A stretch of DNA of 64,000 nucleotides from a virus (IMGVR_UViG_3300017909_001210:15614-79613), one strand, 5' to 3'. Positions 52,042-59,067 are shown, counted from the first letter of the stretch. Numbers and translations: made by a program. The notes: generated from the sequence alone by a model not told the origin.

Positions 52042-52064
52042 TTAGTTGACAAAAAATCATTTTA

Positions 52065-52086
52065 GGGGGACAGTGTCCCCCTTTTT
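52065..52086 (+). terminator. Rho-independent terminator
   Basis: GGGGGAC-AGT-GTCCCCC-TTTTT. Confidence 0.8.
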
Positions 52087-52088
52087 AT

Positions 52089-52096
52089 TATAAATA
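52089..52096 (+). promoter_or_regulatory. T4-type late promoter heading the curli-like operon
   Basis: Exact TATAAATA just after the terminator, 6 nt before ATG 52103. Confidence 0.75.
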
Positions 52097-52102
52097 GAAG
52101 GT

Positions 52103-52399
52103 ATGGAAGAAGTATTTAATTTGATAGGTGACGTTGGAGTTCCCATTGCAATGGCATTAGTAATGGGATTCTTTATATTCATGGTCATCAAACAAATCTT
52201 CGAAGGAATAGTCGATAATATAAAGACACTTACAATGTTTTGTGAATCGTTAGAAAATCGTGCAAGAACAATGTCTAACGAAATGATAAAGATTGATATG
52301 CTAGTGTCAAGTGCATTAGAGTTAAGACCTGATATAGAGAGAGTTGCAAGAGCAGAGAACTTTATAGAAGACGGGAAACTTGATGTAAGAAGGGATTAA
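52103..52399 (+). CDS. Single-TM membrane protein with coiled coil
   Basis: DVGVPIAMALVMGFFIFMVI TM. Confidence 0.6.
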   Translation: MEEVFNLIGDVGVPIAMALVMGFFIFMVIKQIFEGIVDNIKTLTMFCESLENRARTMSNEMIKIDMLVSSALELRPDIERVARAENFIEDGKLDVRRD

Positions 52400-52400
52400 C

Positions 52401-52685
52401 ATGGAAGCCGAAGTCCCCTTAATTGTCGAACTAATAACCGATTACGGATTCCCAGTTGTTATGATGGTAGGACTAGGATATTTCGTATATTATGTATGGT
52501 GGTTTATTGGTGAAAAGATAGACCCCGAAATTGAAAAAATGCATTTTGCACTAATCCGAGTAATTGACCAAACTAGAATGTTAGACCAAGACCTCATACG
52601 TCTTAAAGAAAAAGTTGACGTAGTTCTAGAATATCGTGAAAATGAAAAGAAAAAGATTTCGGCTAAAACCATTAATAATGATTAA
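52401..52685 (+). CDS. Single-TM membrane protein with coiled coil (paralogue-like of the previous gene)
   Basis: DYGFPVVMMVGLGYFVYYVW TM. Confidence 0.6.
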   Translation: MEAEVPLIVELITDYGFPVVMMVGLGYFVYYVWWFIGEKIDPEIEKMHFALIRVIDQTRMLDQDLIRLKEKVDVVLEYRENEKKKISAKTINND

Positions 52686-53175
52686 ATATATTTTACCAAT
52701 TTGTTTTATTTCAATTTTACTATCATTCCAAGTTCACGGAACAGAGATAGTTCACAAGTTTAAAAACCCTTCATTCTCAGGTATCGGAACGGGTGCTCAT
52801 TATCTTACAATTGAGAACCAAGAGTCTAGCCGTAAGAAAGCAATAGAGGACGCATTAGAATCTGCAAGGAAAGCAGCTGAGAGAGAAGCAGAGAATACAA
52901 CCCTAGCAAAATTTATTAGGAACCTCGAAAGCAGAATTTACGCACAATTTGCAAAACAATTAGTTGAATCAATGTTTGCAAATGATAATCCTGCTGGTTT
53001 CGGGTCATTCATATTAGAAGGAAACACTATAACATGGGAAGTAGTCACCGATGAAACGGGTGCTGAGTTTATTAAACTTACAGTTGTTGCAGAGGACGGA
53101 ACTTCTACAGTTATAGAAATCCCAGTCGGAACGGGTAATTTTGCTCAAGACCCTGATGGTGGTTCAGGTGGTTAA
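52678..53175 (+). CDS. csgF: Curli assembly protein CsgF-like
   Basis: Signal peptide, then EIVHKFKNPSFSG...HYLTIENQE matching the CsgF N-terminal (LxFxFxNPxFGG) peptide; probable start ATG 52678. Confidence 0.75.
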   Translation: MIKYILPICFISILLSFQVHGTEIVHKFKNPSFSGIGTGAHYLTIENQESSRKKAIEDALESARKAAEREAENTTLAKFIRNLESRIYAQFAKQLVESMFANDNPAGFGSFILEGNTITWEVVTDETGAEFIKLTVVAEDGTSTVIEIPVGTGNFAQDPDGGSGG

Positions 53176-54070
53176 GTATTTACTTGCACTAACCCTTCTA
53201 ATAAGTGGTTGTGCGTCAGTCCCAAAGTTCACGGAAACACCCCAAGATTGTAGAAACTGGGAACAAGGTGTCCGTAAGGATATGATAACTGGAATTAAGA
53301 AACCAGTCACAAGAGATTATATTTGTGTAGAGTTTCCCGAAGTTGTCAAATTACCTTCGTATGTAGAGTTATTAAACCTTCCACCTGCGGAAGAACGACC
53401 AATTGTTGCAGTATATACTTTTAACGATAAAACTGGTCAAAGAAAAGCAAGAGAGGGAATCGCAGACTTCTCGACTGCAGTCACCCAAGGTGGTGTCGAA
53501 ATGGTTATCGATGCACTTAAGACTGCTGGAGGTGGAACTTGGTTTAGAGTTGTAGAACGAAATGGAATCGATGCGTTGGTTCGAGAAAGACAAATCATTC
53601 GTTCTGCAAGACAAGATTTTGCGAAAATTTCAGGGGAAGACCCCAAAGGAGTTCAACCATTATTATTTGCTGGAATTATAATTGAAGGTGGAATAATAGG
53701 GTATGATACTAATATTCAAACTGGAGGCTCAGGCGCAAGAACCCTCGGTATTGGATTTAGTCAACAATATCGTCAAGATGTTGTGACCATTTCAATGAGA
53801 GCAGTTAGTGTTCTCACTGGAGAGGTATTACTTAATGTTCAAACTCGGAAGTCTATACTATCCGTTGGTGGAGGTGGTGACATATTTAAATTTGTCGAAC
53901 AAGGAACCCAACTAGTAGAGATTGAAGACGGAGTGGGAAATAATGAATCAGTGACTTACGCAGTAAGGACTGCTATTGAAGCAGCCGTGCTGGAATTAGT
54001 ATACCAAGGCCATGAACGTGGTTATTGGAAAATAAAAGAGGTAGAAAACGAAAATGAAGAAACTAATTAG
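53141..54070 (+). CDS. csgG: Curli secretion pore lipoprotein CsgG-like
   Basis: Lipobox LLISGC; VAVYTFNDKTGQRK...STAVTQG...WFRVVERNGIDALVRERQIIR...IIEGGIIGYDTN; true start possibly GTG 53168. Confidence 0.9.
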   Translation: MLKTLMVVQVVKYLLALTLLISGCASVPKFTETPQDCRNWEQGVRKDMITGIKKPVTRDYICVEFPEVVKLPSYVELLNLPPAEERPIVAVYTFNDKTGQRKAREGIADFSTAVTQGGVEMVIDALKTAGGGTWFRVVERNGIDALVRERQIIRSARQDFAKISGEDPKGVQPLLFAGIIIEGGIIGYDTNIQTGGSGARTLGIGFSQQYRQDVVTISMRAVSVLTGEVLLNVQTRKSILSVGGGGDIFKFVEQGTQLVEIEDGVGNNESVTYAVRTAIEAAVLELVYQGHERGYWKIKEVENENEETN

Positions 54071-54794
54071 TTTAGGATTATTATCCTTAATGTCGACAAC
54101 ATTCCTTTTCGCACAAGCCACTGATGACAATGAAATCAAGATTACACAAACTGGTGACACTCTTGATTTATACATAGACCAAATTGGATTCGGTAATAAG
54201 ATAGGGGGAGATAATGGGTCTTCGGGTTCACTATCTGCAATGAGTATTACTGGTTCTACTTTGGACTTTGATTTGGATTTTACAGGAAATAGCAACGTCC
54301 TATTCGGGCCAGTTGTTGCTGATAGTTCTGTTTATAAGTTAGACTTCACTGGAGATTCTAACAGTATAGACTGGAATATTGGATACCTAGGAAGTGCAGA
54401 TTCATCAGACATAAACTTTGACGTGACTGGAAGTAGTAATACTTTCGACCTCGACCAAGGTTATTTCTTTAGTGCAGAAAGGTTAGACGCAGACTTAATA
54501 CTAATCGGTAGTTCAAATGTTTTTGACGTTGATTGGGAAAGTGACGATATAACTTGGAACTTCGATATTACTGGAGGTTCTAACAATGTTAATACATTAC
54601 AAAACGATGGTGAACAGTCTTTAACGTTTACACTTAACGGAGATAGTGCAGACGTAGACATAAACCAAATTTCAGGAACTTGTGCAGCTTCCGTGACTGG
54701 TTGCTCATCACCTGATGCAATTATTACATTGGATATAACAAGTGACAATGCAACAATTCAAATCAATCAAAAAGATTCATCTAGCGATTCTTAA
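54054..54794 (+). CDS. Secreted curlin-repeat-like protein (CsgA/CsgB-like)
   Basis: Signal peptide; NEIKITQTG, DQIGFGN and recurrent TG-x-SN turns about every 23-28 aa. Confidence 0.6.
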   Translation: MKKLISLGLLSLMSTTFLFAQATDDNEIKITQTGDTLDLYIDQIGFGNKIGGDNGSSGSLSAMSITGSTLDFDLDFTGNSNVLFGPVVADSSVYKLDFTGDSNSIDWNIGYLGSADSSDINFDVTGSSNTFDLDQGYFFSAERLDADLILIGSSNVFDVDWESDDITWNFDITGGSNNVNTLQNDGEQSLTFTLNGDSADVDINQISGTCAASVTGCSSPDAIITLDITSDNATIQINQKDSSSDS

Positions 54795-55896
54795 TTTGTT
54801 GTTATTCAGTGGGGTTGCATTCAGTGACCCCATTGGAGATATCGTAGAGTCTATCGGACTCGGAAAAATTACACGTCAAAATACAGATTTCATATCACCT
54901 GAAGTAGGTTATGATATTGAATTGTATGACGTTGCAGAAACAGTAAACGGAAGAATGAAGATTGAGTTCTTGGACGAAGAAGAACTTGATTTAATTGAAC
55001 ACACTATCGTATACATTGACGAAGTGTATTATGACCCCAATCCGTCCAAATCAAAAATGGCTATGAGAATGGTTCAAGGGACGGCACGATTTGCTTCAGG
55101 TCAAGGTAAAAAAATAAAGAAAGCAAATATAGACATATCAACACCGACAGCACAAATTGCAATTAACGGAACAGATTTCACAACTACAGTTGACGAGCTA
55201 GGAAGAACACTCGTTATACTTTTGCCTGACGAAGACGGAATTACACCTTCAGGTGAGATTAGAGTTTATAATGAAGGAGGTGAAACTATACTGAATAAGG
55301 CATATCAAGCAACAATGGTATCAAGTGTTGACCAACCACCAACAGGTTCAGTAGTAATTAATAACCTAACAACTTCAATGATTGACAATATGTTTATCGT
55401 CAATCCACCAACAGAGATTAAAGAACAAATAGAAGAGGAAGCACAAGACGACCAAAATCAAGACCAAGGAATACTAGACGTAGACTTCTTAGAATTCAAT
55501 GAGTTAGAAGGAGATGCACTTGAAGATACACTTGAAGACGACTTCACTGAATTAGATATAGACTTACTAGACGTAGACTTTCTCACCGATTTACTAGACG
55601 TAGTAGAGGAATTAGAAAGGACAACAGTTAAATTAGGAGATGCACAAAAGAAAGGTGGTGCTGGTGACTTTGATTTACAAGGTGCCGTGATAGGATTTAA
55701 CAAAGATTCACAATATAATGTTTTTGTGCAAGACGGAGATTTATATCTTTTCAGAAATGTAAATGGTGTGATTGAAATTATCATTACACAAGGTGGAAGT
55801 GGATTTATTGAAACAAATGTCGAAGGTTATCAGGGTATCATAGAATTCGGAAATGGTGACCCAAGTATACGTATCTTTATCAATCAATCCAACTAA
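54742..55896 (+). CDS. FecR-domain periplasmic protein with acidic C-terminal region
   Basis: Signal peptide; ETVNGRMKIEFLDEEELDLIEHT and ISTPTAQIAINGTDF FecR-type motifs. Confidence 0.75.
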   Translation: MTMQQFKSIKKIHLAILNLLLFSGVAFSDPIGDIVESIGLGKITRQNTDFISPEVGYDIELYDVAETVNGRMKIEFLDEEELDLIEHTIVYIDEVYYDPNPSKSKMAMRMVQGTARFASGQGKKIKKANIDISTPTAQIAINGTDFTTTVDELGRTLVILLPDEDGITPSGEIRVYNEGGETILNKAYQATMVSSVDQPPTGSVVINNLTTSMIDNMFIVNPPTEIKEQIEEEAQDDQNQDQGILDVDFLEFNELEGDALEDTLEDDFTELDIDLLDVDFLTDLLDVVEELERTTVKLGDAQKKGGAGDFDLQGAVIGFNKDSQYNVFVQDGDLYLFRNVNGVIEIIITQGGSGFIETNVEGYQGIIEFGNGDPSIRIFINQSN

Positions 55897-55917
55897 ATAA
55901 TACATAGGAGGCAACTT

Positions 55918-56064
55918 ATGGATATTTTATCAAAAGTCTTTAAGTGGCATGAGAGAAGAACCGAATGGTGGTTAAACGAATTCGGAATTTCTCAATATCA
56001 AGCTATGTGGTTTGCATGGTGTAAAGGTATATTAACAATATTAATATTACAATGGATATTTTAA
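55918..56064 (+). CDS. Small Trp-rich membrane peptide (48 aa; below cutoff)
   Basis: SD AGGAGG; MDILSKVFKWHERRTEWWLNEFGISQYQAMWFAWCKGILTILILQWIF. Confidence 0.6.
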   Translation: MDILSKVFKWHERRTEWWLNEFGISQYQAMWFAWCKGILTILILQWIF

Positions 56065-56855
56065 AGAAAACAATTCTTTTCATAGGGATTTTAACAATCC
56101 CTATGTTTTCATATGCAGACGATAATCACGTTCATGTAGAACAAGTCAATGGTGGTGACAATGCAGACTTATCAATTGACCAAATAGGTTATAACAACCT
56201 CGTAAATTTTTCTTTCGACCACCAAAACAATACAATAGACCTCATACAAAAAGGAAACAATTTGTATTTTGGTTATACTGATACATGGGGTTCGGGTAAA
56301 AGTTGGGGTGGTGACATAGACGGATATAATAATGAAATAGAAGTTAGACAAAGATGTTCTGTCACAAGTTGTAATGATAATGATTTTGGTTTACATGTAT
56401 GGGGTAATTACAACCAAGTTGTTTTTGGTCAAGGATATGAAATCAACAACTCACTTACACCTACTTGGAATTATGACGGAACGGAGCCTGGTGGAAACTA
56501 TGTAAGATTAGATATTCATGGTGACTACAATGACTTTAAAGGAAGTCAGAAACAAGATTCGGATTCAATATATCATTCAATGACTTGGAACATTTATGGT
56601 GATTACAATGACGTATTTTCAAAACAATTGCAGAATGGTGATAAAACACTTACTGGAACAATTAACAACGATTACAATGAAGTTAGTGTAATTCAAAAAA
56701 AGACTGGAGCTCACACTGCAACAATAACATTGGACGGAACATACGGAACAGATTTAACTTTAGTTCAAACTGGAAGTGTTGCACAAACATATACACTATC
56801 TCAAACATGTAATACAATAGGTGGTTGCACTGTAAACGTCACTCAAGGTAATTAA
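56052..56855 (+). CDS. Secreted curlin-repeat protein (CsgA/CsgB-like)
   Basis: Signal peptide; repeats DQIGYNN, DGYNNEIEVRQ, WGNYNQVVFGQ, HGDYNDFKGSQ, YGDYNDVFSKQ, NNDYNEVSVIQ fit the curlin Q-x-G-x-x-N pattern. Confidence 0.7.
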   Translation: MDILKKTILFIGILTIPMFSYADDNHVHVEQVNGGDNADLSIDQIGYNNLVNFSFDHQNNTIDLIQKGNNLYFGYTDTWGSGKSWGGDIDGYNNEIEVRQRCSVTSCNDNDFGLHVWGNYNQVVFGQGYEINNSLTPTWNYDGTEPGGNYVRLDIHGDYNDFKGSQKQDSDSIYHSMTWNIYGDYNDVFSKQLQNGDKTLTGTINNDYNEVSVIQKKTGAHTATITLDGTYGTDLTLVQTGSVAQTYTLSQTCNTIGGCTVNVTQGN

Positions 56856-58705
56856 TGTATTCGTGGAAAACAGTTGTAATAACCATAGGGTTATTATTCG
56901 GTCTTAAGATATGGAATCCCTATTTCATAGAAAATATATCATGGTCTTATTTTGATTATTTACACCAATCTCAGGAAGTAGTTCAGGTAGATAATATTGT
57001 CTTAGTAGATATAGACGAACCTTCACTTGAAGTGTATGGTCAGTATCCATGGCCAAGGTCTATTTACAGGGATTTAATGTTAGACACTTCATACACTAAT
57101 ACACATGTTTTCACTCAACTCTTTAAAGAACCTGATAGATTTCAGGGTGACGAAGCATTTGCAGAAGGTTTAGTAAATCGATTATCAATTCTATCTTCTG
57201 CACCAACAGTTCAAAAAGATACTGGTTCTGCACCTTTTGTAAGAACTAGTGTTTTCGGTGGAGGAAACATAGACGACCATATATGGAGTTTCTCAGGAAT
57301 CTCTTCACCGATTCCAATATTAGAACAAAATTCATATGGTTCAGGTGTGACAATTACTACACCACCAGTCAGTGGAACTGCAAACTTTGACGGGACAGTT
57401 CGTTCTGCACCATTAATTGTTTCTGCAAATGGTGTAGTGTATCCCTCAGTTGCACTAGAAGTTTTACGTGCAATGTATGACCAACCTAATTATCAGACTC
57501 GTGTGACACCCGAAGTTGGAATCGAATGGATTCGTATTGGAAGACAACCCCCAATCGAAACCACTCCAACTGCAGATATCCTTGTAGGATATTGGAATGA
57601 TTTCGAAAGGGTGTCTGCAAAAGATTTACCAAATTCTAACCTAGAGAACAAGATTCTAATTTGGGGTCTGACGGCTGAAGGTCTGAATAATCCAGTTTCA
57701 ACCCCAGTGGGTGTAAAGTATCCCCACGAAGTTCAAGCTTCAATCCTCCACTCCGTCTCCACAGGAGTTCAAATACAACAATCCTACTATCTTGAATTCT
57801 TAGAAGTCGTTCTTCTATTGACAGTTCTTTTAGCAATATTGGTATCGGTCTACACACTTCCCACAATTTTTTCGGGGATAGTGAGTCTAGGTATCGTTGG
57901 ATTTCAGGTGGGTTTGGGTTTCTATTTGTGGACTTCAAGTTTCGTTCTTTTCGATATCTTCTACTCATCGATGGCCTCCATAATAGTGTTTGGACATGCT
58001 TCCTTCAACAAATATTATAAAACCTATCAACTCAAAGAACAAATTAAGAAGCAGTTTCAAAAGTATTTATCTCCCGACATGGTTGACCAACTTGCAGAGA
58101 ATCCTGAACTATTAAAGTTAGGTGGTGAGAGAAAAGAAATGACATTCATGTTCATGGACATATGTGGATTCACTCCAATATCAGAAGCATATAAAAATAA
58201 AGACGACCCCGAAGGATTAGTAGACTTGATAAACAAGTTCCTAGATGTCCAAACGAAGATTATCCTAAATAATAAAGGAACCATAGACAAATATATGGGT
58301 GACTGTATCATGAGTTTTTGGAATGCTCCCTTGGATTGTGAAAACCATGCAGAACTCGCCGTTAAATCCGCTCTAGAAGTATTAGAAGCAACTAAAGAAT
58401 TAAATGAAGAACTATCTCCTCTCAATCTGCCTCCTATTAATGTCGGTATCGGTATTAGCACAGGAGAATGTATTGTCGGAAACATGGGGTCAGAAGTTAG
58501 ATTTGACTATTCCGTCATTGGAGACGCCGTCAACCTCGGTGCTAGACTCGAGGGACAAACACGCAATTATGATGGGGTGGACGTGTTGTTATCGGAACGA
58601 ACTTATCAACAGTGTCCGAACAGAGCATTCACTGAAGTCGACAGAATACTTGTTAAAGGTAAATCCGAAAAGGTTCGAATATTCACACCATTGGGAACTG
58701 ACTGA
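56855..58705 (+). CDS. CHASE2-domain transmembrane class III adenylate cyclase
   Basis: VLVDIDEPSL...QYPWPRS (CHASE2), three TM helices, FMDICGFT, IDKYMGDCIM, DYSVIGDAVNLGARLEG with catalytic D/D/K/N/R present. Confidence 0.92.
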   Translation: MYSWKTVVITIGLLFGLKIWNPYFIENISWSYFDYLHQSQEVVQVDNIVLVDIDEPSLEVYGQYPWPRSIYRDLMLDTSYTNTHVFTQLFKEPDRFQGDEAFAEGLVNRLSILSSAPTVQKDTGSAPFVRTSVFGGGNIDDHIWSFSGISSPIPILEQNSYGSGVTITTPPVSGTANFDGTVRSAPLIVSANGVVYPSVALEVLRAMYDQPNYQTRVTPEVGIEWIRIGRQPPIETTPTADILVGYWNDFERVSAKDLPNSNLENKILIWGLTAEGLNNPVSTPVGVKYPHEVQASILHSVSTGVQIQQSYYLEFLEVVLLLTVLLAILVSVYTLPTIFSGIVSLGIVGFQVGLGFYLWTSSFVLFDIFYSSMASIIVFGHASFNKYYKTYQLKEQIKKQFQKYLSPDMVDQLAENPELLKLGGERKEMTFMFMDICGFTPISEAYKNKDDPEGLVDLINKFLDVQTKIILNNKGTIDKYMGDCIMSFWNAPLDCENHAELAVKSALEVLEATKELNEELSPLNLPPINVGIGISTGECIVGNMGSEVRFDYSVIGDAVNLGARLEGQTRNYDGVDVLLSERTYQQCPNRAFTEVDRILVKGKSEKVRIFTPLGTD

Positions 58706-59009
58706 CCCACCTTCAACAGCAGATTGGACATTATTCATTTTTTTACAAGTCGCAGATATCTACACAACTTATCGTGGACTAAAATACGAATGCGTAGAAG
58801 AAGCAAATCCATTGTTTGGTAAAAATCCAACAGTTGAAACTATGGCAATGTATAAGTTTGCATTGTTGACACCAGCAATTCAATACGACAGAAAACATGG
58901 TAATTTAAATAAGGCATCTATGAGAGGAAATAATACATTTATGATGTTTATTATAGGCAATAATCTAAATGTATTGGAAAGGGCAGAAAATAGATGTAAC
59001 AAAAGATAA
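58404..59009 (+). CDS. Secreted/membrane protein (DUF5658-like C-terminus) overlapping the cyclase 3' end
   Basis: Signal-peptide-like MKNYLLSICLLLMSVSVLA; C-terminal LQVADIYTTYRGL...EANPLFG; start uncertain. Confidence 0.55.
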   Translation: MKNYLLSICLLLMSVSVLAQENVLSETWGQKLDLTIPSLETPSTSVLDSRDKHAIMMGWTCCYRNELINSVRTEHSLKSTEYLLKVNPKRFEYSHHWELTDPPSTADWTLFIFLQVADIYTTYRGLKYECVEEANPLFGKNPTVETMAMYKFALLTPAIQYDRKHGNLNKASMRGNNTFMMFIIGNNLNVLERAENRCNKR

Positions 59010-59059: not shown

Positions 59060-59067
59060 TATAAATA
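59060..59067 (+). promoter_or_regulatory. Late promoter TATAAATA overlapping a sigma70-like TTGAAA-18-TATAAT (59029-59058)
   Basis: Both consensus elements are visible upstream of hsp20. Confidence 0.6.

Follow-up and report, generated by a model that had tools for sequence, protein, structure and literature searches.

Can a phage supply an infected bacterium with the fibre-forming subunits of curli as well as with the pore through which such subunits are secreted? This question is raised by a locus in IMGVR_UViG_3300017909_001210:15614-79613, a 64-kb window (64,000 nucleotides, the whole stretch of DNA that was analysed) of a 79.6-kb IMG/VR virus record whose completeness is put by CheckV at ~44%. 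In a preliminary description of this window, positions 52678-56855 were taken to be a curli-like (type VIII secretion) locus encoding CsgF, CsgG, and two secreted proteins with curlin-type repeats, which will be called RepA and RepB here. The evidence that RepA and RepB are curlin-type subunits is good as a computational test, resting on paralogy, curlin kernels, solenoid models, purifying selection, and synteny. The fuller proposal, that they are fibre-forming subunits exported by a type VIII secretion set expressed late in infection, is a prediction to which we would give an even chance. The cassette itself is a copy of the type VIII secretion (curli) block already published for marine phages, and the idea is therefore a known one. 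What is added here is evidence for both subunits from motifs and predicted structures, signals of late expression, the swapping of csgF and RepA alleles, and a chromosomal copy of the block in Henriciella.

By their Pfam matches and signal peptides, csgF, csgG, and the genes of two exported repeat proteins are indeed present on the + strand at the positions first given for them (Table 1). The two repeat genes had been described as a consecutive pair; this was mistaken, and the gene of a FecR-domain protein lies between them. CsgG and CsgF are clear homologues of the proteins of bacterial curli systems, with CsgG predicted to be an outer-membrane lipoprotein that serves as the secretion channel and CsgF predicted to be an exported adaptor. 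Residues 70-304 of CsgG match the E. coli CsgG structures 3x2r, 4uv3, and 6si7 at E 5.5e-44, and the constriction loop is included in the alignment. In the phage protein this loop reads K-A-R-E-G-I-A-D-F versus K-P-Y-P-A-S-N-F in E. coli, so that the Phe is kept and there is one extra residue. The signal peptide of CsgF ends ...VHG/TE, and the sequence K-F-K-N-P-S-F-S-G lies within the mature N-terminus; a phmmer comparison with solved E. coli CsgF gave no direct match. There is also an alternative GTG start for csgF at 52636. Sec-type N-termini are found on CsgF, RepA, the FecR-domain protein, and RepB (here and below, signal peptides, Sec-type N-termini, and hydrophobic stretches were judged by eye), and thus these four proteins would belong to the envelope or be secreted rather than form parts of the virion.

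The case for the subunits begins with their repeats. RepA passes the Curlin_rpt cut-off narrowly, but all 28 of the relatives tested match this family as well, and the relatives of RepA number 1,565 at 90% clustering. Six regular T-G-x-S-N units, spaced at 22-27 residues, can be recognised in RepA, and the exact motif G-x-S-N occurs five times versus the 0.26 expected from shuffles. When relatives down to 27% identity are aligned, the columns that never or hardly ever vary are those of G-x-x-N and of Q. RepB scores only 12.7 bits with Curlin_rpt, which is below the Pfam cut-off, and no other Pfam family is over its cut-off. Among relatives of RepB, 8 of 40 match Curlin_rpt, and the nearest named ESM Atlas clusters, which are viral, have Curlin_rpt in 18-42% of their members. 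Furthermore, RepB is matched to the RepA family by HHalign with a probability of 97.4% (E 9.6e-12), and RepA and RepB are evidently paralogues. Thus, the comparison with curlin, CsgF, and CsgG profiles that had been proposed as a check places CsgF, CsgG, and RepA over the Pfam cut-offs and leaves RepB below.

In the formulation of Sleutel et al. 2023 (PMC10192328), curlin repeats are 23 +/- 5 residues long, have arcs that contain G, and carry the amyloid kernel N-$-psi-$-psi-$-Q. Kernels of the form N-x-psi-x-psi-x-Q occur six times in RepB, a number reached by 0 of 5,000 shuffles, and three times in RepA (p=0.001), where ~0.2-0.3 would be expected; the count is 0 in the neighbouring CsgF and FecR proteins, which served as controls. 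The literal motif Q-x-G-x-x-N, by which the repeats had originally been recognised, is present only once per protein (RepA Q43-N48, RepB Q44-N49), and the recurrent signature of both proteins is G-x-x-N plus N-x-h-x-h-x-Q. Consequently, the claim of curlin-type repeats holds by virtue of the enrichment of G-x-S-N and of the kernel beyond chance, although not in the form in which it was first made.

Structural predictions point in the same direction. AlphaFold2 gives all-beta models for both proteins (pLDDT 82.9 for RepA and 76.5 for RepB, with a pTM of 0.77 each), in line with the beta-solenoid fold for which such a prediction had been proposed as a check. Both models were aligned exhaustively with 48,161 representative solved chains, and both match the CsgA of Pontibacter korlensis, 8c50_A, best. 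For RepB the alignment has a Z of 19.3 over 213 residues, with 24% identity and an rmsd of 8.8, and for RepA a Z of 17.2 over 191 residues, with 18% identity and, again, an rmsd of 8.8. In both lists of structural matches, no other chain reaches a higher sequence identity. These models support a CsgA-like two-sheet beta-solenoid but do not prove it, since CsgA leads only modestly and with a high rmsd. A prediction of the complex of mature RepA with mature RepB scored 0.10 versus a mark of 0.32, a value that speaks neither for nor against binding, and it was not used.

The repeat genes are also conserved, together with their neighbours. A sample of 80 related IMG/VR loci was retrieved by CsgG, of which 32 have enough flanking sequence to be called long. 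Two small upstream genes (sm1 and sm2), CsgF, RepA, FecR, and a cyclase gene are all present in a fixed order in 32 of the 32 long loci, and RepB and an open reading frame (ORF) for a DUF5658 protein are each detectable in 30 of them. A distant RepA subgroup (A4), when used as a query for further related loci, gave no genome matches. RepA has a ratio of nonsynonymous to synonymous substitution (dN/dS) of 0.09-0.17 and RepB one of 0.12-0.34, values indicating that both are under purifying selection.

A different kind of variation is seen when the window is compared with its closest IMG/VR relatives (L007 and L011). The flanks are 95-99% identical in nucleotide sequence, csgF is 82-84% identical, and RepA 77%. 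The dS of RepA is 1.07 versus 0.06-0.22 in flanking genes. Fast adaptive evolution of RepA was considered but rejected, since dN and dS have risen together, with a dN/dS of ~0.14; the pattern is instead that of allele exchange. Thus, csgF and RepA have been replaced by older alleles, a recombinational mosaicism centred on those parts of the cassette that are exposed. Covariation of csgF with RepA across the loci, as might be seen if RepA were a CsgF-bound nucleator, was also considered and was dropped, since the identities show no such trend.

The locus extends beyond the genes with which the question began. The statement that pore, adaptor, and candidate subunits are all encoded is borne out, but the span of 52678-56855 cuts through a larger operon that also includes the FecR-domain protein, the cyclase, and the small membrane proteins. 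The real unit, to judge from its sequence signals, is a late-promoter operon that runs from 52089 to 59009 (Table 1). The window has 15 matches to the T4-type late-promoter motif, every one of them on the + strand, versus 5.6 expected over both strands. The motif lies at most 40 nt from sm1 in 45 of 76 IMG/VR loci. It also occupies the equivalent place in the Pelagibacter phage HTVC008M, where it is directly 5' of csgF, and in the phage Melnitz, where it is 5' of the first small protein, so that it heads the block in all three phages.

Table 1. Features of the curli-like operon and its borders (positions are those of the window)
Feature	Size	Position	Strand	Evidence and remarks
Intrinsic-terminator-like hairpin		52064..52082	+	8-bp stem with 6 GC pairs, then a T run; closes the upstream unit
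T4-type late-promoter motif, TATAAATA		52089..52096	+	Heads the operon, directly after the hairpin
sm1	98 aa	52103..52399	+	phrog_18771, E 8e-24; one N-terminal hydrophobic stretch; sm2 paralogue
sm2	94 aa	52401..52685	+	phrog_18771, E 1.9e-23; one N-terminal hydrophobic stretch; sm1 paralogue
csgF		52678..53175	+	Pfam CsgF, E 2.4e-11, 44.4 bits vs cut-off 25.8; phrog_35372, E 1.9e-40
csgG		53141..54070 (likely ATG 53156)	+	Pfam CsgG, E 2e-49; lipobox L-I-S-G-C
RepA	246 aa	54054..54794	+	Pfam Curlin_rpt, 23.2 bits vs cut-off 20.7; signal peptide ...LFA/QATDDNE
FecR-domain protein	384 aa	54742..55896 (ATG 54748)	+	Pfam FecR, E 7.1e-8; phrog_37870, E 4.2e-62
RepB	267 aa	56052..56855	+	RepA paralogue; signal peptide ...SYA/DDNHV
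CHASE2 / class III adenylate-guanylate cyclase	616 aa	56855..58705	+	Pfam CHASE2, E 2.1e-27; Guanylate_cyc, E 6.9e-19
DUF5658 ORF	201 aa	58404..59009	+	Pfam DUF5658, E 1.6e-5; signal-peptide-like start
Next late-promoter motif		59060..59067	+	5' of hsp20; end of the unit

The accessory genes of this operon are of three kinds. First, sm1 and sm2, which are also present in HTVC008M and Melnitz, occupy the position at which Wittmers et al. 2022 (PMC9599517) drew a 'histidine kinase'. The hydrophobic stretch in each of them was taken to be a transmembrane helix. No Pfam family is found in sm1, which is too small for a histidine kinase; neither protein has a kinase domain, and their look-alikes are viral only. 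The two proteins may be holin-like or may act as pore assembly factors. Second, there are the FecR-domain protein, whose N-terminus resembles a signal peptide, and the cyclase, whose N-terminal half contains a CHASE2 sensor domain (Pfam) and whose ATG overlaps the stop codon of RepB. Third, the DUF5658 ORF overlaps the final 300 nt of the cyclase gene in a different frame. The tail of the ORF beyond this overlap varies more than any other stretch of the block, with 65-67% nucleotide identity to close relatives.

The phage that carries this operon is, from its gene content, an uncultured marine T4-like phage. T4-type replication genes (those of the clamp, the clamp loader, and RegA) lie upstream of the curli-like block. 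The clamp loader has 58-59% identity to those of cyanomyophages and equally to those of the Pelagibacter phages HTVC008M and Mosig, and this equidistance indicates a marine T4-like lineage of its own. A metagenome-assembled genome labelled 'Sphingobacteriales' includes two contigs, L087 (121 kb) and L093 (142 kb), each with a copy of the phage cassette, and L087 also carries the T4-like backbone genes gp44 and RegA. L087 comes from the same phage species as the window, with proteins from sm1 to the cyclase that are 93-99% identical and a DUF5658 protein that is 59% identical. Both are phage contigs that were binned into a bacterial genome, and the label of the bin is uninformative about the host. 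The same misbinning of phage contigs is seen in several other bins, labelled Rhodobacterales, Synechococcus, and Flavobacteriales. Bins with the labels 'Sphingobacteriales', 'Rhodobacterales', and 'Synechococcus' were considered as host evidence and were left unused, since their contigs carry phage backbone genes.

How, then, does the block compare with those already known? In earlier work, CsgA/B were stated to be missing from phage loci, and it was proposed that a CsgG/CsgF pore serves in the timing of lysis or in the uptake of molecules (Zaragoza-Solas et al. 2020; Buchholz et al. 2022). The preliminary description relied on this view when it spoke of phage loci without clear subunits. The statement is true of those two papers, but it has been outdated by GenBank labels and by Wittmers et al. 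2022. The GenBank entry of HTVC008M (KC465899) annotates a 'curlin minor subunit CsgB', and that of Melnitz (MZ577097), a Methylophilales phage, annotates two 'curlin associated repeat' proteins, a FecR protein, and a cyclase. Furthermore, Wittmers et al. 2022 described CsgA/B repeat genes, FecR, a second CsgA/B gene, and a cyclase in marine Myoviridae and Podoviridae (PMC9599517). Their work also found viral curli genes at all 65 GOV2.0 stations and transcripts in ocean metatranscriptomes, described the host group as lacking curli, and had already proposed aggregation, superinfection defence, and 'sibling capture' as roles (PMC9599517). A literature search found no later experimental paper on phage curli genes.

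All elements of the cassette as described by Wittmers et al. (csgF-csgG-curlin-FecR, a second curlin gene, a cyclase, and small upstream genes) are found in the window, in order. The order of small proteins, csgF, csgG, curlin, FecR, second repeat protein, and cyclase is common to the viral systems (Wittmers et al. 2022, HTVC008M, and Melnitz), and CsgE and CsgC, missing from the published systems (PMC9599517), were not found in this record either. The cassette proteins have identities of only 30-51% with their counterparts in HTVC008M and Melnitz, and the conserved DUF5658 ORF overlapping the cyclase gene sets the block apart from the viral system as Wittmers et al. described it. The comparison with bacterial curli (E. 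coli and the CsgA of P. korlensis) is a mixed one. As in bacteria, there are two exported paralogous repeat proteins with repeats of ~22-27 residues, an N-x-h-x-h-x-Q kernel, and G-x-x-N arcs. Unlike bacterial curlins, however, RepA and RepB have degenerate repeats, acidic surfaces, conserved Cys pairs, and no sequence match to solved CsgA or CsgB, and the phage block is linked to a FecR protein and a CHASE2 cyclase and is headed by a phage late promoter.

A cellular counterpart of this linkage was found. The closest cellular CsgG proteins are alphaproteobacterial, as they were in the analysis of Wittmers et al. 2022 (PMC9599517). A metagenome-assembled genome of Henriciella sp. (Hyphomonadaceae) carries, at L096 6466-12489, genes for csgF, csgG, a 504-aa protein, FecR, and a CHASE2 cyclase. 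The contig is 396,755 bp long, and the block has housekeeping genes on both sides. These five genes lie in the same order as in the window, with identities of 54% for CsgG, 41% for the cyclase, and 37% for FecR, and each is confirmed by Pfam. The 504-aa protein is matched to the RepA family by HHalign with a probability of 99.2% (E 6.5e-20). The Henriciella block differs from that of the phage in having a single long curlin gene instead of two and in having no sm1 or sm2. Among 80 further genomes sampled from this family, none had the FecR type of Henriciella, and the block is therefore sporadic in cells. Nevertheless, the Henriciella block means that the csgFG-FecR-cyclase linkage also exists outside viruses, which is at odds with how PMC9599517 words it.

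Given all of these findings, the following model can be put forward. Late in infection, a single transcript from the TATAAATA promoter at 52089 would express the whole block. CsgG would be made as a lipoprotein and inserted into the outer membrane of the host, where it would become a secretion channel, and CsgF would be exported and cap this channel. RepA and RepB would be exported by the Sec system and then cross the CsgG channel in an unfolded state. Once outside, they would fold into two-sheet beta-solenoids of ~8 curlin-type rungs, which would stack into cell-associated fibres. One paralogue, either RepA or RepB, would be the nucleator or anchor and the other the main subunit. The FecR protein and the CHASE2 cyclase are co-inherited with the block, and through them cAMP would probably respond to the state of this envelope machine or to a cue from outside. 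In this model, secretion through CsgG, polymerisation into amyloid, the identity of the nucleator, and the ecological role (aggregation, shielding, or capture) are steps that we infer only.

However, several observations weigh against such fibres. The repeats of RepA and RepB fall into the 'degenerate' class of the authors of PMC10192328, and many rungs are without the kernel Q or N. When RepA and RepB profiles were searched against PDB sequences, nothing was matched at E<=10, solved CsgA and CsgB included. Among the structural matches, SufB/D-type beta-helices follow at Z 15-16, so that the lead of CsgA is only ~2-3 Z units at an rmsd of 8.8 A; in addition, a Foldseek search of both models against the PDB returned weak, generic beta-helix rows and nothing significant. 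Both proteins have invariant Cys pairs, which lie near the C-terminus (C210/C217 in RepA and C253/C259 in RepB), and RepB has a second pair at C102/C107. E. coli CsgA is not known to contain cysteine. The pairs may form small disulfide loops that close off the solenoid or hold it in place. P0294 and other distant RepA-like proteins terminate in C-x-x-x-x-C.

The secretion channel and the biology of infection add to these difficulties. Within the constriction loop of CsgG, the E. coli Asn is aligned with Asp and the E. coli Tyr with Arg/Glu; in the numbering of Goyal 2014, both E. coli residues belong to the constriction. A search of the 79.6-kb record, which is ~44% complete, with the Pfam profiles of CsgE, CsgH, and CsgC gave no match at E<=1, as the preliminary description had noted for CsgE and CsgC; CsgD, which it had also failed to see, was not searched for. 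The absence of CsgE from this record thus counts against the proposal, with the reservation that CsgE and CsgC define the gammaproteobacterial operon type and CsgH the alphaproteobacterial one, rather than the system as such. Viral and alphaproteobacterial modules without CsgC, CsgD, and CsgE have also been reported (PMC9599517). Furthermore, Melnitz-infected cells show no clumping in cytograms or by transmission electron microscopy (Buchholz et al. 2022). Finally, the tight linkage to FecR and the cyclase suggests that the block may chiefly produce something other than bulk fibre.

This last point leads to another hypothesis, in which CsgG/CsgF with a surface-exposed curlin-like antenna, in place of a bulk fibre, is a trans-envelope sensor; the state of the antenna would be read in the periplasm by the FecR protein and passed to the CHASE2 cyclase, with cAMP as the output, for example to time late events. 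Such a sensor would explain why the FecR and cyclase genes are interleaved with the repeat genes in the same order in every long locus, why the cyclase start and RepB stop overlap, and why the five-gene linkage recurs in the Henriciella chromosome. The signal-peptide-like N-terminus of the FecR protein and the CHASE2 sensor domain of the cyclase would also fit. Podophage versions of the cassette, however, are often without the cyclase and the second repeat gene and keep csgFG with one curlin gene (PMC9599517), from which it follows that the secretion part can stand alone, and we consider the sensor an unlikely account of the block. A more specific version, in which RepA and RepB form a stalk on CsgG/CsgF that is read by FecR and switches the CHASE2 cyclase, so that surface contact or shear would set cAMP and, through it, late decisions such as the timing of lysis, with sm1, sm2, and the DUF5658 protein as further parts, seems to us less likely still.

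It is also conceivable that RepA and RepB are exported through CsgG to form a coat that is not amyloid, acting as monomeric or short solenoid adhesins or as shields, for example by blocking a receptor against superinfection. The degenerate repeats are compatible with this, the Cys pairs and the conserved termini (DDN-x-I at the N-terminus) could serve as caps, and Melnitz gives no clumping. In addition, the swapping of RepA and csgF alleles is a pattern common for surface-exposed proteins. Nevertheless, the top structural match of both proteins is a CsgA that forms fibres, the two paralogues mirror the division of labour between CsgA and CsgB, and open-ended solenoid rungs with Q/N ladders drive stacking (PMC10192328). 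A coat of this kind is therefore improbable in our judgement. Least convincing, and very improbable, is the idea that CsgG/CsgF only forms a gated pore in the outer membrane, which would time lysis or take up molecules and would not have the repeat proteins as its substrates: late expression, two small proteins with one hydrophobic stretch directly upstream, a constriction loop whose charge is unlike that of E. coli CsgG, and the lack of CsgE would suit it, but it leaves unexplained both the strict co-inheritance of two exported curlin paralogues under purifying selection and the bacterial csgFG pair with a neighbouring curlin gene.

Taken together, these results leave the export of RepA and RepB as fibre-forming curlin subunits, at the even chance given above, as the reading that we prefer. 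The hypothesis of phage curli was published, subunit genes included, in 2022, and the copy described here provides supporting detail. If the hypothesis is true, phage-encoded curli fibres on abundant free-living marine bacteria would alter the sticking and sinking of these cells, their grazing, and their superinfection, and would thus matter for the flow of carbon in the ocean and for phage ecology.

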